Shown here piece by piece: positions 4,027-41,594 of a stretch of 64,000 bases of DNA; within the stretch, counting starts at the first letter, position 1, and each line of letters opens with the position of its first letter. Location: contig OZ244170.1 in assembly GCA_965216565.1 (NCBI GenBank), positions 3,072,001-3,136,000 on the forward strand, in the 5' to 3' direction. The notes beneath the pieces were generated by a model, which made no database searches, was not told the origin of the DNA, and was given only the letters and a program-made list of their open reading frames with translations. A program made the position numbers and the translations under genes. The DNA is from Bythopirellula sp. Lineage in GTDB: Bacteria; Planctomycetota; Planctomycetia; Pirellulales; Lacipirellulaceae.

Positions 4027-5538
4027 CTAGTAAGCTCGCGAGAACACCGCGCGTTTTGCGCTCGGCTGTCCACTAAAAATACACGTCCCCGATTCCTCCG
4101 GCCCATCCACCGGCACGCAGCGCGCCGTCACTTTCAGCTCCTTGAGCTTCGCTTCCATCTCCGGCCCGTCGACGAAATGGCAATACGCCAGGCCGCCCGG
4201 GGCGTCCTCGGCAAAGTACTCGGCAAATGCGTCGAGATCGTCAATCGTGGTGGTCGCTTCTTCGCGAGCTGCTGCCGCGCGATCGAATAGCCCCTGCTGG
4301 ATTTCAGCAAGCATCGTTTCCACACCTGCCAAAAACTTTTCGCGTGGCGGAAACGGCTCGTCAGGCTTGCCGGCAATGTCGCGACGTCCCAAGGCCACTT
4401 TGCCCCCTTCGACATCGCGGGGGCCAACCTCAATCCGAATCGGCACGCCCCGTTTGACCCATTGCCATTTTTTCTCGCCGCCACGCATATCCCGGTCGTC
4501 CAGTCGCACGCGGATCGGTTCGCCATCGTATTGCTTGGCTTCCAATTCTTTTTTGAGCGATTCGCAATAGGCCAGCACGTCGCCACGTTGGTCGTCGCCC
4601 TTGTAGATCGGCAAAATCACCACATGAGCCGGGGCCAACTTCGGCGGCAATACTAATCCGTCGTCGTCACTATGCGTCATGATCAATCCACCTACAAGGC
4701 GCGTCGACACGCCCCACGAAGTGGTCCACGCATACACTTCCGCGCCTGTGTTGTCTTGGAATTTGATTTCCTGCGCCTTGGCAAAATTTTGACCCAAAAA
4801 GTGCGACGTCCCCGCCTGCAGCGCTTTGCGATCTTGCATCATCGCCTCGATGCTGTACGTTGCCACCGCGCCCGGGAACCGTTCGCCGGCCGTCTTCTCG
4901 CCCTTAATCACCGGCATAGCCATCGCGCTCTCGGCAAACTCTGCATACACATCAAGCATCTGCCGCGTTTCTTCCTGGGCTTCTTCGGCCGTCGCGTGCA
5001 CGGTGTGTCCTTCCTGCCACAAAAACTCGGCGGTGCGTAGAAACATCCGCGTCCGCAATTCCCAGCGCACGACGTTGGCCCATTGATTAATAAGAATCGG
5101 CAGGTCGCGATACGACTCGACCCAGCGCGAGAATGTTGCACCGATGATCGTCTCACTCGTGGGCCGTACGATCAACGGTTCGTCAAGCTCGGCAGAAGGT
5201 GCCGGGCGCAAGCCGCCCTCAGGATCGGGCTCCAGCCGATGATGGGTCACCACCGCGCACTCTTTGGCAAAACCTTCGACGTGCTCGGCTTCCTTCTCCA
5301 AAAAGCTCATCGGGATAAACAGTGGGAAGTAAGCGTTTTCGTGCCCGGTGGCTTTGAACATGTCGTCGAGCCGCTTCTGGATATTTTCCCAGATGGCATA
5401 CCCCCACGGCTTGATCACCATGCAGCCACGGACGTCGGACGTCTCCGCCAGGTCGGCCGCCTTCACGACTTGTTGATACCACTCGGGATAGTTCTCCGCG
5501 CGGGTGGGAGAAATTGCATTCTTCGGTGCTTTGGGCAT
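4027..5538 (-). CDS. proS: Proline--tRNA ligase (archaeal/eukaryote-like type)
   Basis: VRGCMVIKPWGY, VRPTSET, QWANVVRWE, FLRTAEFLWQEGHT, ALQAGTSHFLGQNF, TSWGVSTR. Confidence 0.97.
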   Translation of the reverse strand: MPKAPKNAISPTRAENYPEWYQQVVKAADLAETSDVRGCMVIKPWGYAIWENIQKRLDDMFKATGHENAYFPLFIPMSFLEKEAEHVEGFAKECAVVTHHRLEPDPEGGLRPAPSAELDEPLIVRPTSETIIGATFSRWVESYRDLPILINQWANVVRWELRTRMFLRTAEFLWQEGHTVHATAEEAQEETRQMLDVYAEFAESAMAMPVIKGEKTAGERFPGAVATYSIEAMMQDRKALQAGTSHFLGQNFAKAQEIKFQDNTGAEVYAWTTSWGVSTRLVGGLIMTHSDDDGLVLPPKLAPAHVVILPIYKGDDQRGDVLAYCESLKKELEAKQYDGEPIRVRLDDRDMRGGEKKWQWVKRGVPIRIEVGPRDVEGGKVALGRRDIAGKPDEPFPPREKFLAGVETMLAEIQQGLFDRAAAAREEATTTIDDLDAFAEYFAEDAPGGLAYCHFVDGPEMEAKLKELKVTARCVPVDGPEESGTCIFSGQPSAKRAVFSRAY

Positions 5539-32715: not shown

Positions 32716-33405
32716 ATGACCAGATCGAACATAGGATTCGTTTGCACAGCACTTCTTGCCATTGCACTTTGTTCAACGACCAACGCGCATACCGATTTCA
32801 CAGTTGGCACAGCCAACACCTCCAATTTTGATCTCGACGGACCAGTGCTCGAGACGCAAGGTGATTTGGGTACCAACACAGCGCAGGCGACAATCTTCGC
32901 CCCCAATCTGCCAACCGAATTCGTCACCGGTGGCGTGACGGCGCTAACTCTTGACGTAGTGGGCTCTCGCTTAGGCGGCAATGGCAACATCGCTTCAGAG
33001 GCCACGACACTGTCCCCTGATGGCATCGGCGTAGTTGGCGGCATTCTTTCCGACGAGCTCGGCCCTGGCGAAGCGCTGTCTTTCTCGCTCTCCTCAGTCA
33101 GCACGGGGGCTCAGCCAGTCATTACCGGTCTTGTGCTCGACAGTTTTCGGGACAGCTTTTTCCCCTTCTCGACGTTCACGCTTACCGGTGCGACGTTCAA
33201 CGGAGGCGACACCACCTTTGATGGCGAGTTCGACGACCTCCCCCTCGCCTTCGATAACCCGGTAAGCTCCGTTACCATCACTTCCACCACCGGCGATGGT
33301 GCCAGCGATTTCGTTGTGTCGGGTGTTTCTGTCGCCATCCCCGAACCTGGGTCGATCGTACTGCTGCTCACCGCCTCGCTGGCCATTGTTAGCCGACGGC
33401 ATTAG
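32716..33405 (+). CDS. PEP-CTERM sorting domain protein
   Basis: Signal peptide; IPEPGSIVLLLTASLAIVSRRH tail. Confidence 0.88.
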   Translation: MTRSNIGFVCTALLAIALCSTTNAHTDFTVGTANTSNFDLDGPVLETQGDLGTNTAQATIFAPNLPTEFVTGGVTALTLDVVGSRLGGNGNIASEATTLSPDGIGVVGGILSDELGPGEALSFSLSSVSTGAQPVITGLVLDSFRDSFFPFSTFTLTGATFNGGDTTFDGEFDDLPLAFDNPVSSVTITSTTGDGASDFVVSGVSVAIPEPGSIVLLLTASLAIVSRRH

Positions 33406-33544
33406 ATGCGAATCTGTGTGTACAAGCGGCACACGTTACTCAGGCGCGGGGACCGTCACCTGCACTAATTCCCCTTCCACGGGGCTATGGCACCGGTTTT
33501 CGCTGCAGGCCATGTACGTGAGTTTGACGTTCAGGCTCGTCGGC
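33338..33544. repeat. 207-bp direct repeat, copy 1 (PEP-CTERM tail + orphan 3' end of the DsbD-like gene at 33436-33544, minus)
   Basis: Near-identical to 36493-36698; minus strand encodes PTSLNVKLTYMACSENRCHSPVEGELVQVTVPAPE*. Confidence 0.92.
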
Positions 33545-33932
33545 GCTGATGTGTTTCATGGACTAACGCGAAGCGGTCAGCCAATTAACAAAGCCCACGA
33601 CGGCGATACTTCCAAGCTCATGAACACAGTGTTGAGCCCTTCTGATTAGAACAATGTCGGCAGTATGCAATCGTCAATAATTCTTAGCTCGACCGTTGCC
33701 TAAACCTATGACAGGAGTTCCATAGGGAAGCTGTTTCCCCAGAGTTTACCCTCTTTTTGCAATCTAAGAGTTGCACCTCTATAGTATAGGTAGCGGGCAC
33801 CGCTTTTTGAGCTTGAATAGGTACCTTCCCCATCATGCGGACCGCCGCTTGAAATTGGGAGCGCAATGTTTCCGGCGAAACTGCACAAGTTTCATTTTCA
33901 CTGACCGCCTACATTCGGCAGAAGACAGCCTC

Positions 33933-36560
33933 ATGAAAAAGACTGATCTTGTTTCACTCTTCCCAATGCTCCTCGGCATTCTGCTCGTGAGCATTTCTAC
34001 CCTGCCGGTCTTTGGTCAATTCACTACAGTAATCAACATCCCACCTGATCCCGATCTGGGCAACGGCCAATCGATTGGGTCGGACACGCAGTTGAATCTC
34101 GGCGCGGGCGGATCGATCGGTTCGACGTTTGCCGCCGGTGCGACCGATGGCAGCAGCACGAATGTCGAAGTGAATATTTCTGGCGGCACCGTTGGCAACT
34201 CCTTCCGATCGTTCGGAGGAAGCACGGTCAACATTTCGGGAGGCGCTCTGGGAAATTCGTTCCGCGCCTTTAGCGGGAGTACCGTCAGGGTTTCGGGGGG
34301 CACACTCGGCGATAGTCTTGTGATTTCTGCGGGCTCAGATTTCGAAGTCTCGGGAGGAACCGTAGGTGATGACCCCGTGCTGTTTGTCAATGCGGTTCTT
34401 GACATGACAGGCGGTTCAATTGGCAATAACTTGGAGACTCGCAACAACAGCGCGGTCAACATCTCGGGAGGACACATTGGTACCGGTGCCGGTGGCCCGC
34501 GAACTAACTGGGATGTCTCAGGTGGGTTTGTCGACACCGATCTTCTCTTAAACCTAAACAGTTCTCTTGATTTGTCGGGAGGCTCGGTCGGCCATGGACT
34601 GACGCTCTCCAGCAACAGCGAAGTGAACTTGCTCGGCGACGATTTTTTTCTCGACGGCGTTCCCATCAACATCCCTGGCAGCACGCTACCATTCAATCTG
34701 CCGGCGGGAGCAATCTTGAGCGGCACTCTCTCCGATGGCGTCTCATTTACCCTTTCCACCGATCACAACGACGTGCTTCCCGATGGCACGATCACGCTTG
34801 TTCCAACGCCCATTGTGGTTACCGGGCCGCCCCTCATCACCCTTCCCGCGGACCCCGTGCCCGGCGGAGTGGGGGCGGGGCAGACGCTTGAAGTCACGAG
34901 CGGAACTGACCTACGTAACGATTTCGACGCGGGACCGGGCAGTACGGTCAACACCACCAATAGCAATGTTGGTGCTTGGTTCCAATCGGTAGGATCCAAT
35001 GTGAACGTCTCCGGCGGTTCCGTGGGGGACGATTTCCTGGCCATTCGTAGCAGTTCGGTCGACATCGCTAATTCTGCGGTCGGCGAGCGATTCCGCTCAC
35101 TCGAACAAAGCGACATCACCATCACCAACAGTCCTATCGGCGACAATTTTACAGCAGCCGGAGGGAGCACGGTAAATCTAAGCGGGACGACGGGGGGACG
35201 GGCTTTCCGACTCACCGAGAACAGCGTGCTGAACATCGATGGTAATGGTCAGGTTGCCACGCAAGGGTCATTCTCCGATGCGTTTCTGGCATCGGGCGGT
35301 AGCGAAGTGAATCTCAATAGTGGCAATATTGGCAACAACGCCGAGATTACAGGTAGCGGCACCACGCTCAATATTAATGGCGGGTCAATCGGGAGTTCTT
35401 TCGATGCAACGGACGGTAGTATTGTAAATCTCACTACAGGATCGATTGGTGGAGTAAGAGGAACCGATAGTACAATAAATATTGATGGAGGAACTGCTGG
35501 CGGAGTAAGTGGAAACCTTCTCAATCTGACGGATGGATCAATTGAATTAGCAGACGTCGAGACGTTAAACATGTCCGGAGGAACAATTGGCCCTGAAAGC
35601 CAGATCAGAACAGAAGCAAACCTGTCTGGCGGTTCCATCGGTCGACAATTAGAAGTAGACAGCGGAGCAGAACTAAACATCTTCGGCGGCGAGTTCATGC
35701 TCGATGGCGTAACGATTGCGGGGCTCGACAATCCTGGTGATTCGGCTGGCGTTACCCTGACTAGTCCGTTTCAATTGACTGGAATCCTGGAAGATGGGAC
35801 TCCGTTCGCGTTTCACGACCTTGATCGGGATCTAATCACCGATGCCAATATTACATTGTTCAGAACGGCACTCCCCGCCATTGGCCCCGCTTCTATTTCT
35901 CTTCCTACTGACCCCGTACCCGACGGTCTACGCGATGGTCAAACTTTGACGATCGAGGCGGGTGGTTCCACGGGAGAGATATTTAACGCCGGACCAGGGA
36001 GCACCGTGATCCTCGATGGTGGGGAAATTGGTGAAGATTTCGAAGCAGTCGGTGCCGACGTACAAATTCTCGACGGCATCGTTCAAGATCACTTCGATGC
36101 CTTGGCTGGCAGCACCGTACTGATTTCCGGCGGTGATATTCGAGAATTTTCTGCACTGAACGGCAGCATAGTTGAAGTCACTGGGGGATTAATCCGCACC
36201 AATAGCGACTTTAATGTCTCAGCTGGAGCCATGGTAACAATCGCTGGTGGAGTCTGGCCCGATACCATTTTTAACGATGATGTGTCTTTCAGTGCCGGTA
36301 GCGATGTACATATCTTCGGTAGAGGCGGTTTCCGCATTAATGGCGATCCAATTCCTGGGCTAGAGAATCCAGGCGATAGCATCCTGGTAGACGCGTCCAC
36401 CGTTGATTTTCTTCAAGCAATTCTGCGCGACGGCAATCCTTTCATCGTCAATGACGTGCAATCCGGCGCAATGATCCGGCTCACCCGCGTCGTCCCCGAA
36501 CCTGGGTCGATTGTACTCCTACTCACCGCCTCGCTGGCCATTGTTAGCCGACGGCGTTAG
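33933..36560 (+). CDS. Large Gly-rich repetitive PEP-CTERM surface protein (875 aa)
   Basis: Start moved to ATG 33933 (MKKTD + signal peptide); many VNISGG-type repeats; VPEPGS tail. Confidence 0.9.
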   Translation: MKKTDLVSLFPMLLGILLVSISTLPVFGQFTTVINIPPDPDLGNGQSIGSDTQLNLGAGGSIGSTFAAGATDGSSTNVEVNISGGTVGNSFRSFGGSTVNISGGALGNSFRAFSGSTVRVSGGTLGDSLVISAGSDFEVSGGTVGDDPVLFVNAVLDMTGGSIGNNLETRNNSAVNISGGHIGTGAGGPRTNWDVSGGFVDTDLLLNLNSSLDLSGGSVGHGLTLSSNSEVNLLGDDFFLDGVPINIPGSTLPFNLPAGAILSGTLSDGVSFTLSTDHNDVLPDGTITLVPTPIVVTGPPLITLPADPVPGGVGAGQTLEVTSGTDLRNDFDAGPGSTVNTTNSNVGAWFQSVGSNVNVSGGSVGDDFLAIRSSSVDIANSAVGERFRSLEQSDITITNSPIGDNFTAAGGSTVNLSGTTGGRAFRLTENSVLNIDGNGQVATQGSFSDAFLASGGSEVNLNSGNIGNNAEITGSGTTLNINGGSIGSSFDATDGSIVNLTTGSIGGVRGTDSTINIDGGTAGGVSGNLLNLTDGSIELADVETLNMSGGTIGPESQIRTEANLSGGSIGRQLEVDSGAELNIFGGEFMLDGVTIAGLDNPGDSAGVTLTSPFQLTGILEDGTPFAFHDLDRDLITDANITLFRTALPAIGPASISLPTDPVPDGLRDGQTLTIEAGGSTGEIFNAGPGSTVILDGGEIGEDFEAVGADVQILDGIVQDHFDALAGSTVLISGGDIREFSALNGSIVEVTGGLIRTNSDFNVSAGAMVTIAGGVWPDTIFNDDVSFSAGSDVHIFGRGGFRINGDPIPGLENPGDSILVDASTVDFLQAILRDGNPFIVNDVQSGAMIRLTRVVPEPGSIVLLLTASLAIVSRRR

Positions 36561-36698
36561 ATGCGAATCTGTGTGTACAAGCGGCCACGTTACTCAGGCG
36601 GAGGTACCGTCACCTGCACTAGTTCCCCTTCCACGGGGCTGTGGCACCGGTTTTCGCTGCAGGCCATGTACGTGAGTTTGACGTTCAGGCTTGTCGGC
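36493..36698. repeat. Direct repeat, copy 2
   Basis: Matches 33338-33544 with one indel and scattered substitutions. Confidence 0.92.
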
Positions 36699-37264
36699 TC
36701 CTGCGGCGGAGTTTGAAAGCGAACCGGCAGATAGAGCGCGACCGGTCCGTCTGGATAGATGGGAAAAGTTAAATTCAAAACTTCTTCCACGTGGATCATT
36801 TCTGGCTTGTCGGCGATCAGCGCGTCGACATCCGCAATCAAATCCGAGGGCTCCAGTTCGATGAGCGTAGGACGCCCCAAACCGCTGATGCCCTCTTTCG
36901 GGAGAGTCTTGCTGTACAGGTGATAACCGGCATCGTCGGGTGTGAAGACGCCGCGGATAACGAGTTGCCCCTCGTCACTCCACGCCGCACTAAGTTCCAC
37001 CGCAACACGTCCGCCATCGTCGTGATGCGCATCGGCAATCGGCTCATAGTCTAAACTGGCAAGCGGATTGCCGGAAACCTTCGCGGGCTCAGCCTTCACC
37101 TCCGCCGGTGCGGAGTCCTGGACGTCAGACTCGCTGCAGCCGACCACCGTCGATCCAAGTAGCATTCCAAGAACGAGTATGCTACGGCACCTTTTAATTC
37201 CTCTGAACTCAACCAATGAATTCTCCTCTATCTTTTCGCGTTTGCGTTTAATATCTGATGTCAA
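36590..37264 (-). CDS. DsbD N-terminal (alpha)-like domain lipoprotein
   Basis: Lipobox-like VVGC; GYHLYS; C-terminal YMACSENRCHSP resembling the DsbD-alpha YQGC..C.PP redox loop; start uncertain. Confidence 0.75.
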   Translation of the reverse strand: MTSDIKRKREKIEENSLVEFRGIKRCRSILVLGMLLGSTVVGCSESDVQDSAPAEVKAEPAKVSGNPLASLDYEPIADAHHDDGGRVAVELSAAWSDEGQLVIRGVFTPDDAGYHLYSKTLPKEGISGLGRPTLIELEPSDLIADVDALIADKPEMIHVEEVLNLTFPIYPDGPVALYLPVRFQTPPQEPTSLNVKLTYMACSENRCHSPVEGELVQVTVPPPE

Positions 37265-37335: not shown

Positions 37336-38799
37336 CTACTTTTGCAAATAAAGCCAAACAAAACCAGTGGACCGCGAATCCATGAATTCCGATCGCTCGC
37401 CGTAAAGCGTGCTGATTTCTTGCTGGGCCTGCTGCAGTTCGGAAACCTCGGGAGGCTCGTCCTGCGCTGCCGTATCATCCATTCCCAACACCGAGAGCAG
37501 CCATTTGCCAACTGCCGAGCCATCGGCCCCTTCGGCCTCCGCATTGGGATCGTCCTCGACCGTTTGCTCCGCGGCGGTCTGCTCTTGCTCCTCTTGGGCT
37601 GCCTCCATCAGTTCGGTCATTCTCGTCGAAACCTCTTGCACCTTCTTATTCCACTCGGCGAACTTTTCTTCGTACTCGGCCACCGAGAGTCCATTGGCGG
37701 GAGAAACGAGCGTTACCGAATCGCCCACCAACAAATCGAGCTTGCCATCGTCGTTGACGTCGTCCACCCAAATGCGTGTCGATGTCTTGGGGCCTTCTAG
37801 ATCGTCTTCGTCGAGCAGATTGTTGGAGGCGACGCGAGGCTCAGCAGGGATCAACGGCTCGAACGCCTCTAACTCTGGAATTTCTCCAGCGTCTGCCACA
37901 TTCTCGGCCCACTGCACACCCCCGTTACTGGAACCGCTGAGCAGATCAAGATCGCCATCGTTGTCCCAATCCACGATAAACGGATCGCTATGGTGGCCCG
38001 CTATCTTCAGCATTTCGTCACCCAGCAAAATCGATTCCGGCTGCGGTTGAAAAACGCCTTCACCTTCACCGTAAAACACATAGAAACTACCGCCGAAATT
38101 TCCAACCACTAGATCAAGATCGCCATCGGCATCCCAATCAACGGCCGTCGGCCGCGTGCAGATGTTTTCTAAACTGGTGCCGCCATACTGCTCGGCATCG
38201 TCGCCAGGGGGAATAATCAGCGGCTCGCCATCGGAGACATTCAAAGCCTCCGCGGGTTGGAACGTTCCGTCCGGCTGTCCCCATAACACTTGAAACAGCC
38301 CCGCCATCGATTGCCCCATTCTCGAATAAGAACCGGACAGGATATCTAAATTACCGTCCTCGTTGAGATCCACCAACTGTGGAGTAGAGCTCGTGCATCA
38401 CCACACGCCCGGCACTTCCGCCACTTCGTCGCCGGCCATCAGCCATTCGCCCTCGGCGAGTTGCATGTCGCCTTGGTTCTTGAAAACCTGAATCTTCCCT
38501 TGGGCGAATTGCCCGACGAGCAAATCCTTCTTGCCATCGTTATTGATGTCGGCCCAACAGGGGGACGCATAACCGGGCGATTCAACCGACACCGGTCCCG
38601 AGGGAGACTCAAGCTGACGCGGCACTTCAAACTCGAAGTTCACCAACCGCGTGCTGGCATCTGCCGAGGTTGTGGTCACGTCAGACGACGCGGTAGAAGT
38701 CGGCGCCGGGGCCTGGTTGGAACAACCCCCGACCAGGAGGGTCAGCAGAGGCAGGAGTGCCGCTAGAAGATTAACTCGACTGAATAAAGGGTGGCTCAC
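37336..38799 (-). CDS. FG-GAP/VCBS-repeat lipoprotein with in-frame TGA (candidate selenoprotein, U134-C135), 487 aa
   Basis: GTG start at 38799 with GGGAG RBS, lipobox VGGC. Track ORFs 38398..38859 and 37336..38376 share a frame and are separated only by TGA (38398-38400) plus 7 sense codons. Five DxxxDGxxDLLxG-type repeats. Confidence 0.8.
38364..38392 (-). promoter_or_regulatory. Candidate bacterial SECIS hairpin
   Basis: After UGA: UGCACGAGCUCUAC-UCCAC-AGUUG-GUGGA-UCUC; the loop starts 19 nt after UGA with G as its second base. Confidence 0.55.
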
Positions 38800-39038
38800 A
38801 ATCTGTTTCTCCCAAGGAGATGCTCTGTGATTCCTTTTAAAACGATCAATCAACATCATTCAAATGAGGCATTCGAACAAATTCTAGTTTAACATTTTGC
38901 ATCGCAATTCGTACACCCGGGGAGAAAACTTGGTTGTTTTCACAGGCCGGAGTCTGGTAAAACCGCAGTGCCAGGCCGCACCGGCTTTCTGCCAGCAATA
39001 CCAACCTCACGACCTCCACCGGGACAACTACCAACACG

Positions 39039-41594
39039 ATGCCACGAATCTTTTCCGTTTCACTGGTGGTCTTACATTTGCTAGCTGGCGGCGCTGGGCA
39101 CTCGCTCGCCGAGGATAGCATCCACATCCGAGCCAACCAGATTGGCTACCGCACGGACGAGCGCAAAGTTGCCATTGCCTTTTCGCACGAACCGGTCGAA
39201 GGGAGTTTTTCTCTCTTGGAGGTGCCGACCAAAAAGGTTGTGTTCACAGCGGAACTCACGCCCGCGTCCGCCCCGGGTTGGGGAACGTTCGCACATCATT
39301 ATCGGCTCGATTTCAGCAAACAGACGAAGCCGGGCCGATACGAACTGCGGATCGACGACTCTGGGGAAACTTCGCGATCCTTGACTATCGGCGACGATGC
39401 CTATGGCGATTACGTCGAAGATCTCCTGCGGTTCATGCGCCAACAGCGGTGCGGATACAACCCGGTGCTCGATATGGTTTGCCACCAGCGCGACGGCAGG
39501 ACCGCCTTCGGACCGAAACCAGCCGACACGTTTGTCGATGCCAGCGGTGGTTGGCACGATGCGGGCGACCAATTGAAATACCTTCTCACCGGCAGCAACG
39601 CCACCGCCCGGATGCTGTTGGCCTACGAACTAGAGCCCACCAAGTTCGACGATCGCACCGACCGCCTGGGCCATCCGCTTCCCAATGGTGTGCCCGACGT
39701 GCTGGACGAGGCCCGTTGGGGATTGGATTGGATCTTCAAGCTGCACCCCAGCCCCAAGGAACTCTACCACCAGGTGGCCGACGATCGCGATCACAACGAA
39801 TGGAAGATGCCCGACCGCGACACCTCCGACTATGGCTGGGGGCCCAACAGCTATCGAGTGGTCTATGCCGCGGACGGCAAACCGCAGGGCCTGCGGAAAT
39901 ATAAAAGCGAATCCACCGGCCTGGCCAACCTCGCTGGGCGCTGCGCCGCGGCCATGGCCCAGGCGCATCGAATCTGGCAGCGCGATCTGGACGATCCGCT
40001 GTTTGCCGCGCGCTGCCTGCAGGCGGCCCGCGAACTCTATGCGTTGGGCAAGTCGCACGAAGGCGTCCAGCAGGGCAACTCCTATGGCGCTCCCTACCGC
40101 TACGCCGAGACCACTTGGGCCGACGACATGGAGTGGGCCGCCGCGGAACTCTTTGCCGCCACCGGCGAGGATACCTATCGCAACGATGCCATTCGCTATG
40201 CTCGGCTGGCGGCAGACACTTCTTGGATGCCACTGGAAACCGCCGGCCACTATCAATACTATCCCTTCGTCAACGTCGGACACTTCGCGCTCTACCCACA
40301 TGTCGATGCCACACTGCAGCAGGAATTAGCCGGCTACTACCGCGCCGGCATCGAGGCCACCTTGGCCCGCGCCCAAAATAATGCCTTTGGCATTGGCGTG
40401 CCATTCATCTGGTGTTCCAACAACCTGACGACCGCGCTCGTAACGCAGCTCTTGCTCTACGAGCGGATGACGGGCGACCGGCAGTACCACGACCACCTGC
40501 TCGCCCAGCGCGATTGGCTCTTCGGCCGTAATCCCTGGGGGACTACCATGTTCACCGAAATCCCCCGCGATGGCGAATTCCCCGAGGACGTGCACACCGC
40601 TATCTGGAAACTCACCCGGCGTGCCGTACCGGGAGGGCTCATTGATGGTCCCGTGTATACCAAGGTTTACGACAGCCTGTTGGGACTCCATCTAGAAAAC
40701 GACGACGAGTTCGCGGCGTTCCAAAACAAACACGTCGTCTATCACGACGACATCGGCGACTACTCCACCAACGAACCAACGATGGACGGCACCGCGGGGG
40801 CGATCGCCATGATGGCCCACTTTGGCACAACGCCCGCTAATGCCCGCCGAAGCGTTGCGCGTCGCACCCTGGAACCACCCGCCAATCTACTGCTCGACCA
40901 CGGCGCCATTCGCCGCGGTTCGCCGGCCGACAAACGCCTCGCCCTGCTGTTCACTGCCGACAAGCACGTCGACGGCGCCAATCCCATTCTCGAAACTCTT
41001 ACCAAACACAAAGTGCCCGCCGCGTTTTTCCTCACCGGCAAATCACTCGACGCGCCCCACATGCGCGACTGGACGCGACAAGCACTCGCAGCGGGTCACT
41101 ACGTCGGCCCGCATTCCGACGGGCACTTGCTCTACGCCCCATGGGACGATCGGCAGCGGTCGCTTGTTTCCCAGGAACGTTTCCAAGCCGATCTCTATCG
41201 CAACCTGGCGGAGTTGGGCGAACTCGGTGCGGTGAAATCGCGGCCGATCTATTTCGTGCCGCCCTACGAATGGCACAATGCCCAGCACACCGCTTGGGCC
41301 AAGGAACTTGGCTGCCAGATGATCAACTTCACCTCCGGCAGCGGTTCGCAACGCGATTTCGCCCCGGAAGGTCACCAGGCATTTGTTCCCTCGGAAGAAC
41401 TGATCGAGGACATTTTAGAGCACGAACAGATCTCGAAACACGGACTCAACGGCCACCTGCTCTTGCTGCATCTCGGTACGACTCGAAAAGACAAAGTCTA
41501 CGCCCATCTCGGCAGATTGATCGAGGAGCTGTTGGCACGCGGTTATTCGATCGTGCGCGTTGATGAATTGCTCAGCGAAAGTAACACGCCGTAG
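39039..41594 (+). CDS. GH9 glycoside hydrolase (N-terminal Ig-like domain) fused to a CE4/NodB-type polysaccharide deacetylase domain
   Basis: IRANQIGY, GGWHDAGD, DYSTNEPTMDG; C-terminal LALLFTAD, AAFFLTG, GPHSDGH, PPYEW, LLLH. Confidence 0.9.
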   Translation: MPRIFSVSLVVLHLLAGGAGHSLAEDSIHIRANQIGYRTDERKVAIAFSHEPVEGSFSLLEVPTKKVVFTAELTPASAPGWGTFAHHYRLDFSKQTKPGRYELRIDDSGETSRSLTIGDDAYGDYVEDLLRFMRQQRCGYNPVLDMVCHQRDGRTAFGPKPADTFVDASGGWHDAGDQLKYLLTGSNATARMLLAYELEPTKFDDRTDRLGHPLPNGVPDVLDEARWGLDWIFKLHPSPKELYHQVADDRDHNEWKMPDRDTSDYGWGPNSYRVVYAADGKPQGLRKYKSESTGLANLAGRCAAAMAQAHRIWQRDLDDPLFAARCLQAARELYALGKSHEGVQQGNSYGAPYRYAETTWADDMEWAAAELFAATGEDTYRNDAIRYARLAADTSWMPLETAGHYQYYPFVNVGHFALYPHVDATLQQELAGYYRAGIEATLARAQNNAFGIGVPFIWCSNNLTTALVTQLLLYERMTGDRQYHDHLLAQRDWLFGRNPWGTTMFTEIPRDGEFPEDVHTAIWKLTRRAVPGGLIDGPVYTKVYDSLLGLHLENDDEFAAFQNKHVVYHDDIGDYSTNEPTMDGTAGAIAMMAHFGTTPANARRSVARRTLEPPANLLLDHGAIRRGSPADKRLALLFTADKHVDGANPILETLTKHKVPAAFFLTGKSLDAPHMRDWTRQALAAGHYVGPHSDGHLLYAPWDDRQRSLVSQERFQADLYRNLAELGELGAVKSRPIYFVPPYEWHNAQHTAWAKELGCQMINFTSGSGSQRDFAPEGHQAFVPSEELIEDILEHEQISKHGLNGHLLLLHLGTTRKDKVYAHLGRLIEELLARGYSIVRVDELLSESNTP

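Follow-up and report, generated by a model that had tools for sequence, protein, structure and literature searches.

Does a lone in-frame TGA end a protein or does it encode selenocysteine (Sec)? This question is raised by a locus of the planctomycete Bythopirellula sp., situated in a stretch of 64,000 nt (contig OZ244170.1, positions 3,072,001 to 3,136,000; assembly GCA_965216565.1) that is referred to here as the window. On the minus strand of the window, the open reading frames (ORFs) 38398..38859 and 37336..38376 form a single frame, the sole break of which is the TGA at 38398–38400. An original prediction, made from the sequence alone and without naming the strand, had already joined the two ORFs across this codon, and translation bears it out. 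The UGA is very probably read as Sec, and the locus would thus be a genuine selenoprotein gene. Four lines of sequence evidence support this interpretation, which is also that of the original prediction: the occurrence of TGA or Cys codons at the same column in homologues, the presence of the sel genes, a hairpin downstream of the UGA and the way in which standard annotation splits the gene.

The TGA codon and its counterparts in related genes

Read across the break, the frame runs ...AEVPGVW-TGA-CTSSTPQLVDLNEDGNLDILSG..., or ...AEVPGVW-U-CTSSTPQLVDLNEDG... when TGA is translated as Sec, giving the motif W-U-C. Five repeats lie in register at residues 98–109, 158–169, 235–246, 291–302 and 361–372 (numbered from ATG 38859). 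All five had been quoted in the original prediction, which stated that the codons after TGA complete such a repeat. The longest frame, starting at this ATG, yields 507 amino acids with Sec at position 154 (U154), while initiation at GTG 38799, with GGGAGA located 8 nt upstream, would give 487 codons and U134, i.e. the 487-aa U134–C135 product initially proposed. Other features of the original description hold as well: no further lesion interrupts the frame; the downstream ORF by itself begins with TTG (MVDLNEDG...) in the middle of a repeat and has no signal peptide; and TGA is a normal stop elsewhere, closing five of the window's 25 long frames and 447 of the genome's 1576.

In isolation, a lone in-frame stop looks like a nonsense mutation in a recent pseudogene or like a sequencing error. 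However, one run of another study yielded a 9506-nt contig that spans the whole gene with 32 differences, none of which falls within 38238–38540, and a contig of a third study is identical across 38263–38445. Because contigs from two other studies carry the same sequence at this place, the TGA is not an assembly error. Moreover, over 100 genes from many genera share this codon, and the frame around it is intact. It is this conservation of the TGA codon that refutes mutation and error as explanations, leaving them with a probability close to nil.

In a set of 41 related genomes, the four best matches other than the window itself (62, 65, 57 and 38% identity) contain one in-frame TGA each, and the TGA column is identical in all four orthologues (PGVW*CTSSTPQ in three, VPFG*CIGFTPQ in the fourth, the asterisk denoting TGA). 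Three stop-free relatives (31–36% identity) have IY-C-C-IG at this column. A scan of species-representative genomes added 80 loci, mostly from metagenome-assembled genomes (MAGs) labelled Planctomycetota or Verrucomicrobiota. When all 88 loci were aligned to a profile, TGA was found at the column in 56 and one column off in three (L054, L072 and L083), while nine loci have Cys-Cys and the remainder, distant FG-GAP proteins, lack the motif. The original prediction had suggested looking for homologues that carry TGA or Cys here and are conserved to either side, and both states are indeed present.

The family is common in the phylum. The window's genome and 400 others drawn evenly from the phylum were searched at a threshold of E 1e-20, and 89 of these 401 carry homologues, some of them as many as three copies. 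Of the 113 matched places, 109 include a TGA, and two of the other four stop short of the column. Full-length, family-like representatives without a stop (50% library) number 17, of which 15 are Cys-Cys. The other two, one Cys-Arg and one Trp-Asn, count against a selenoprotein family, yet non-Cys residues at this position, regarded in the original prediction as the sign of a nonsense mutation or sequencing error, are not the rule.

The same pair of residues stands out in alignment A3 (46 rows), where U154 and C155 are the only invariant Cys/Sec positions, whereas C101 (26 of 46 rows) and C234 (25 of 46 rows) are marks of the window's subfamily and are absent from whole clades. In a quick maximum-likelihood tree of 53 rows, from which fused C-terminal domains had been removed, Sec forms occur in both deep clades and Cys forms are nested among them, a distribution that requires at least four state changes, at least two of which are forced by well-supported branches. 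A profile search of 1.84 billion representatives returned 98932, 34112 and 6511 matches at 1e-3, 1e-10 and 1e-30, respectively, numbers that are dominated by giant multi-repeat FG-GAP proteins and do not reflect family size.

Variant Sec contexts are found in the distant relatives L054, L072, L083, L089, L090 and L101, and include G-G-U-G-A-G-G, in which no Cys follows Sec, as well as Y-U-C-C. MAGs of Candidatus Sabulitectum have G-U-C-T-G-A-T-N-P-Q with the hairpin one codon further on, and L101 combines a U-G context with a hairpin in another frame. One Cys-Cys member (L074:2516 onward; PIYCCIGSSPQFVDFDGDG) goes out of frame shortly past the motif and seems to be a broken copy or a misassembly.

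The gene callers' reading is that TGA is a true stop, which would leave an exported stub together with a separately started C-terminal protein, or the stub alone. As the original prediction had anticipated, this reading prevails in public annotation: 116 of the 120 best database proteins begin past the TGA, 108 of them no more than 16 residues past the column and eight at a Met 31 residues past it, and the four proteins that span the column are all Cys-Cys. Yet the called starts (TTG, GTG or ATG) vary in place, fall within a repeat and lack a signal peptide, whereas the signal peptide and first blade are always encoded upstream of the TGA. The Cys-Cys relatives, furthermore, are single proteins, and in the structural model described below both halves are needed for one propeller. 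We consider a true stop at this position extremely improbable.

The genome, which consists of one contig of 5.21 Mb, contains all four genes of the Sec machinery whose presence had been put forward as a check on the original prediction. selA (420 bits), selB (recognised by the SelB winged-helix domain in a 663-codon frame), selD (275.7 bits) and selC, i.e. a tRNA-Sec with the anticodon tca, are all located at 683–690 kb. The selD match (G000:C1:688407-689324, outside the window) sits in a 747-codon open frame about twice the usual SelD length, which may be a fusion or merely a long frame; the tRNA-Sec (689527–689624) comes directly afterwards.

Across the phylum sample, SelA is present in 289 of the 401 genomes overall and, according to a cross-tabulation by hand, in 86 of the 87 genomes that carry the TGA form—a strong association rather than a statistic, as related genomes are non-independent. 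The exception, a TGA-form genome in which SelA was not found (G103; 90% complete, 410 contigs), weighs against the dependence of this form on Sec. A genome without SelA (G384; 99% complete) carries a stop-free form.

A SECIS-like hairpin within the coding sequence

The UGA is separated by 14 nt from the start, and by 19 nt from the loop, of a hairpin that resembles a Sec insertion sequence (SECIS). Pairing was assessed in a gapless alignment of 51 distinct TGA loci, leaving aside L083, L089, L090 and L101 (other spacing), L046 (locus edge) and one duplicate. The five core pairs are formed in 50, 51, 51, 48 and 51 of these 51 sequences. Two compensatory changes from A-U to G-C, in L077 (CCG CGG ... 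GCG) and L081 (CCG ... GCG), alter the encoded amino acid in each case. Pairs that extend the stem covary between clades, one being A-U in 10 and G-C in nine sequences and another G-C in 19 and C-G in two, and are unpaired in about 30 sequences.

The strongest evidence for the hairpin is a bias at synonymous sites. Where the hairpin is encoded, Pro is specified by CCA in 46 of 51 cases, as compared to 9.8% of the 810 Pro codons elsewhere in the same genes. The same comparison gives 30 of 31 vs 8.2% for Thr (ACT), nine of nine vs 7.1% for Ser (AGT), 10 of 10 vs 14.7% for Gly (GGT) and 49 of 49 vs 37% for Val (GTG). Eight Cys-Cys loci provide a natural control: they retain one to three of the five pairs, and some of them encode the same S-S-P-Q-F with other codons. 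That the hairpin is independent of the reading frame is illustrated by L101, where its counterpart (CCCCC-AGUUU-GGGGG) lies in a different frame.

How does this element compare with known signals for Sec insertion? Those passages of PMC13188914 that set out the bacterial SECIS (bSECIS) model specify a loop of 3–9 nt, an upper stem of 4–16 bp, a G in the first two loop positions, a distance of 16–37 nt from the UGA and a minimum free energy (MFE) of at most -7.5 kcal/mol. With a loop of 5 nt, a stem of 5–7 bp, a G at loop position 2 and its spacing of 19 nt, the hairpin satisfies these constraints of the model as given there (PMC13188914). When the core is enforced, the local fold reaches -7.5 kcal/mol or lower in all 51 sequences (-10.5 kcal/mol in the window), and the unconstrained optimum contains the core in 42 of them. 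Nowhere else in the whole genome does a TGA with this hairpin pattern lie in a frame that is open to either side. The 3′ hairpin invoked in the original prediction has thus been located, and it both fits the bacterial model and is conserved at the RNA level.

The stretch 38353–38418 is also the most conserved DNA of the gene: in comparison with metagenome contigs from other organisms, no other part reaches ≥88% identity, and the alignment there covers ~62 nt around the Sec codon and the hairpin. A promoter and terminator scan returned nothing above chance.

Several observations weigh against the hairpin as a functional element. Covariation is thin, with a nearly constant core, three of seven pairs that never vary and shuffle controls that are exceeded modestly. 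A C.U mismatch interrupts the core of three sequences, all of which possess a GGU...ACC extension of the stem. Folded alone, the 56 nt from the UGA adopt a different structure (-10.7 kcal/mol, z 0.15) that is equalled by 101 of 200 shuffles, and no Rfam family was matched in a scan of 38250–38500. Because the single-sequence fold is no better than shuffles, the case for the hairpin is a comparative one throughout.

These data also bear on whether the UGA might be read through without selenium, by near-cognate insertion of Trp or Cys or by other suppression, with the hairpin merely slowing the ribosome. Such a scenario could draw on the Trp found at the column in one stop-free representative (P0282), but we judge it very improbable: the TGA form accompanies SelA in all but one of its carriers, the hairpin fits the constraints of a SelB-type SECIS in its loop, G position and spacing, and the great majority of the stop-free relatives carry Cys, the residue that usually stands in for Sec.

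An exported propeller and a possible thiol relay

The protein matches the Pfam families FG-GAP_3 (PF13517; 84.5 bits, cut-off 26.9) and FG-GAP (PF01839; 40.4 bits, cut-off 22.1) across both of its halves. As for export, the original prediction of a lipoprotein stands for this gene, which by inspection encodes a lipobox-like LVGG-C, and not for the family, in which the lipobox Cys is found in four of 46 aligned rows and the other members have ordinary signal peptides. Nearly all relatives share a hydrophobic leader upstream of the TGA and the C-terminus ...GFVWLYL(R/Q)K.

An AlphaFold2 model built with 46 sequences (mean pLDDT 85.4, pTM 0.81) confidently predicts that the exported protein is an FG-GAP-type propeller with DxDxDG Ca loops, probably five-bladed, which is closed by C-terminal strands. 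Within these strands, G499, V501 and W502 are nearly invariant, and structural alignments extend to residue 507. Sec154 and Cys155 are adjacent in the model and located just ahead of the first strand of blade 2. Top Foldseek matches are seven-bladed FG-GAP propellers (E 2.5e-8 to 1e-5, TM 0.23–0.35), while the highest-ranking structures in the entire fold library are five-bladed propellers, such as 3wmy_A (Z 19.6, rmsd 3.3 Å over 257 residues, 7% identity, model range 72–507). Judging from the model, the protein resembles glycosidases in fold alone, and the shared propeller fold as such reveals no function.

A lead to function is offered by the adjoining gene. Its product scores 20.3 bits against Pfam DsbD_N (PF11412), below the cut-off of 25, and belongs to a small family (20 database matches), 13 of 17 members of which match DsbD_N and no other family, again below cut-off (best E 4.1e-5). 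An alignment of the 17 members reveals invariant H115, Y117, G..G.G.PT and Y-x-x-C202-x4-C207-x-x-P. The structural model (pLDDT 82.8) predicts an immunoglobulin-like DsbD-alpha sandwich with the conserved Cys pair C202/C207, and its top Foldseek matches (6dnv, 6dps, 6c29, 1l6p, 1jzd and 1jpe; E ~1e-4, TMt 0.54–0.65) are DsbD N-terminal domains and ScsB-N. Comparison of the sequence with the PDB gave short ubiquitin matches, which are spurious and were disregarded, and a profile of the family found nothing in the PDB. The genome contains one DsbD_TM gene, and the neighbour is its only DsbD_N-like sequence.

In other lineages, the same module is joined to the propeller. A home-made profile detected the DsbD-N-like domain in 14 of the 88 loci, fused C-terminally in nine, adjacent downstream in four and nearby on the other strand in one. 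Pfam DsbD_N scored above its cut-off in all five fused proteins tested (25.6–37.4 bits), three of which are Sec forms. The most elaborate arrangement is encoded at L063:2357-5128 (+), a 924-residue fusion of a propeller (Y-U-C), a DsbD_N domain (37.4 bits) and an AhpC-TSA/thioredoxin domain (64 bits). The active-site motif of the last of these domains is W-TGA-G-P-C, and this second TGA (4814–4816) is followed by a GC-rich hairpin; L063 is probably a protein with two selenocysteines.

In view of the fusions to DsbD_N and thioredoxin domains, the adjoining DsbD-N-like gene and the DsbD_TM gene, we infer, at about even confidence, that the Sec-Cys pair acts as a redox centre to which a DsbD-type relay supplies electrons. 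More generally, the propeller family probably works in redox chemistry outside the cytoplasm. According to the mechanism that we propose, the hairpin (38369–38383) would recruit SelB with Sec-tRNA(Sec), and decoding of the UGA (38398–38400) as Sec would yield a single exported protein of 487–507 residues. Its adjacent Sec-Cys pair would cycle between selenol/thiol and a vicinal selenenylsulfide and serve as the end acceptor of an extracytoplasmic thiol relay of the DsbD type, running from a membrane DsbD/CcdA-type protein, in some cases through a thioredoxin-like domain, to the DsbD-N-like domain and on to the U-C pair of the propeller. In the last step, this pair would reduce an oxidised substrate bound on the propeller. 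The DsbD-N-like module would be supplied by a separate lipoprotein gene here and as part of the propeller protein in the lineages with fusions.

There is also evidence that speaks against such a relay. The DsbD-N-like domain is fused or close by in only the minority of loci given above, the family of the neighbour was found in two of the 41 related genomes and in none of the four Sec-orthologue genomes, and the 101 ORFs flanking 28 Sec loci include no conserved partner.

Adjacent Cys-Cys and Sec-containing pairs are good ligands of soft metals, and mercuric reductase has a C-terminal Cys-Cys. Sec could thus be real while the Sec-Cys pair forms a soft metal or metalloid site (e.g. for Hg, Cu, As or Se species) that acts in trafficking or detoxification instead of catalytic redox chemistry. 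Besides this general ligand chemistry, C101 and C234 of the window's subfamily could add ligands, and the gene immediately upstream at L058 encodes a heavy-metal P-type ATPase that includes an HMA domain. On the other hand, U154 and C155 alone are invariant, the other Cys residues being lost in entire clades; a metal pump is the neighbour at one of 28 loci; and the recurrent fusion partners are domains of thiol-disulfide exchange (DsbD_N, thioredoxin) and not metal-binding ones. A metal site is therefore an unlikely role for the pair.

Overall, the combination of Sec insertion, a propeller fold and a function in a thiol relay is likely to be the best explanation of the locus (Table 1). A more far-reaching proposal is tentative and falls somewhat short of an even chance, namely that the members of the family are extracytoplasmic selenoenzymes of a new class, five-bladed FG-GAP-type propellers in which a vicinal Sec-Cys selenenylsulfide would serve as terminal reductase of a DsbD-type relay, and that some lineages may have the whole relay—propeller U-C, DsbD-alpha-like Cx4C and thioredoxin-like UxxC—in one polypeptide with two selenocysteines. 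If true, these proteins would be among the commonest selenoproteins of Planctomycetota and Verrucomicrobiota, invisible to standard annotation.

Table 1. Features of the probable selenoprotein locus in the window.
Feature	Position	Strand	Details
Whole recoded gene	37336..38859	-	507 codons from ATG 38859; stop TAG 37336–37338; translation with TGA=U
Signal peptide with lipobox-like LVGG-C	38722..38799	-	By inspection; Cys46 codon 38722–38724
Sec codon UGA (putative)	38398..38400	-	U154 (ATG 38859) / U134 (GTG 38799)
Codon of the neighbouring Cys, C155	38395..38397	-	Columns 154 and 155 invariant in the 46-row alignment A3
SECIS-like hairpin core	38369..38383	-	UCCAC 38383–38379, loop AGUUG 38378–38374, GUGGA 38373–38369
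Possible lower stem around the hairpin	38352..38397	-	Tentative; core-enforced fold -10.5 kcal/mol; lower pairs differ between clades
Propeller body (predicted), five DxDxDG loops	37690..38637	-	Residues ~75–390; AlphaFold2, pLDDT mostly >90
Long helical hairpin (predicted)	37387..37683	-	Residues 393–491, partly low confidence; helices 393–435 and 474–491
Conserved C-terminal strands (...TGFVWLYLQK) rejoining the propeller (predicted)	37339..37383	-	Two strands, 493–504, pLDDT 96–98
DsbD-N-terminal-like lipoprotein gene (TYMACSENRCHSPV)	36590..37264	-	72 nt downstream, same strand; proposed electron donor in this lineage

The surroundings of the gene bear the trace of a direct duplication of ~212 nt (33333–33544 and 36488–36698; 94–95% identity), which covers the region where a PEP-CTERM gene and the DsbD-N-like gene converge with their 3′ ends. 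It has left behind a dead DsbD-N-like fragment at 33436–33627 (-) and a second, shorter PEP-CTERM gene at 32716–33405 (+). The fragment is the second match to the neighbour's family, and a possible U-x4-U site within it was rejected, as this is a duplication remnant with ordinary Cys codons. At 33771–36560 (+), the window encodes a 929-residue Gly/Ser/Asn-rich repeat protein that ends in a PEP-CTERM-like sorting signal (16.5 bits, below cut-off). The divergent gene at 39039–41594 (+) encodes 851 residues with a domain of glycoside hydrolase family 9, the N-terminal Ig-like domain of that family and a polysaccharide deacetylase domain, and has no evident link to the selenoprotein gene.

Relation to known systems

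Because the family is common (89 of 401 genomes) and is almost always interrupted at the Sec codon in public gene calls, the selenoproteome sizes of Planctomycetota and Verrucomicrobiota are likely underestimated. The near-constant hairpin offers a simple signature by which members can be detected and correctly annotated. The range of Sec sites would be widened, too, by a beta-propeller that carries a vicinal Sec-Cys instead of the usual UxxC on a thioredoxin fold, and the fusions to DsbD_N and thioredoxin domains provide a testable functional hypothesis for an exported protein that lacks any other clue.

With the bacterial SelB/SECIS pathway, for which E. coli fdhF is the paradigm, the locus shares the in-frame UGA, a hairpin inside the coding sequence and the genes selA, selB, selC and selD. 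It differs in that the hairpin sequence is specific to the family and without an Rfam match, and in that the protein is neither a formate dehydrogenase nor a member of any listed family.

Nearest in print are planctomycete FG-GAP repeat proteins annotated as two genes flanking an in-frame TGA (Kim et al. 2016, Table S9; PMC4807772). bSECISearch was positive for three of four of these proteins, which have an ASPIC/UnbV domain and whose closest match has Gly at the site; the same table contains one 'hypothetical' with Cys in Rhodopirellula sallentina (PMC4807772), which may or may not be a member of the present family. The present protein, by contrast, has five repeats and a Sec paired with Cys, and no Pfam match to the ASPIC/UnbV domain was found in it at E up to 0.01.

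None of the terms FG-GAP, VCBS, propeller, integrin, Planctomyc, lipoprotein, repeat, ASPIC, pfam13517 and pfam01839 is used in the main text of PMC13188914, a catalogue review of 2026, and FG-GAP, VCBS and propeller terms are likewise absent from the main text on deep-Sep (PMC12013277). Table passages of a 2022 review (PMC9312934) list no such family, the selenoprotein models of NCBIfam gave no match beyond a sub-threshold unrelated one, and a full-text literature search linking selenoprotein or selenocysteine to FG-GAP, VCBS or propeller returned no relevant paper. With respect to the catalogues checked, this is very probably a new, uncatalogued selenoprotein family that makes use of a known bacterial recoding mechanism.

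Among FG-GAP propellers of solved structure, the Psathyrella and Agrocybe lectins, CRTAC1, integrin alpha and the B subunits of Tc toxins share repeats with DxDxDG loops with the present protein and are its best Foldseek matches. The structural agreement is limited, however (TM 0.23–0.35), and it is five-bladed propellers of GH43, GH62 and GH32 that rank first for this model.

The DsbD relay, in which the thioredoxin-like DsbD-gamma domain passes electrons to the N-terminal DsbD-alpha domain and the latter to partners in the periplasm, e.g. DsbC or CcmG, is echoed by the propeller-DsbD_N fusions, one of which includes a thioredoxin-like domain, and by a neighbour with the DsbD-N fold and two Cys residues; the solved DsbD complexes 1jzd, 1vrs and 1z5y are among the structural matches of the neighbour's model. 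In this case, however, electrons would pass to a vicinal Sec-Cys on a propeller and not to a thioredoxin-fold protein, the neighbour scores below the Pfam cut-off and the link is seen in a minority of lineages.

Adjacent chalcogen residues can form an eight-membered ring. Animal thioredoxin reductase has a vicinal Cys-Sec redox centre (Gly-Cys-Sec-Gly), and the propeller of methanol dehydrogenase has a vicinal Cys-Cys next to PQQ. The adjacent chalcogen pair is alike in all three proteins, the latter of the two also having it on a beta-propeller, although no homology is claimed. Without a flavin or PQQ signature, the present protein sets its pair apart by the order Sec-Cys and by its place in an internal loop, not in a C-terminal tail, of an exported bacterial protein.

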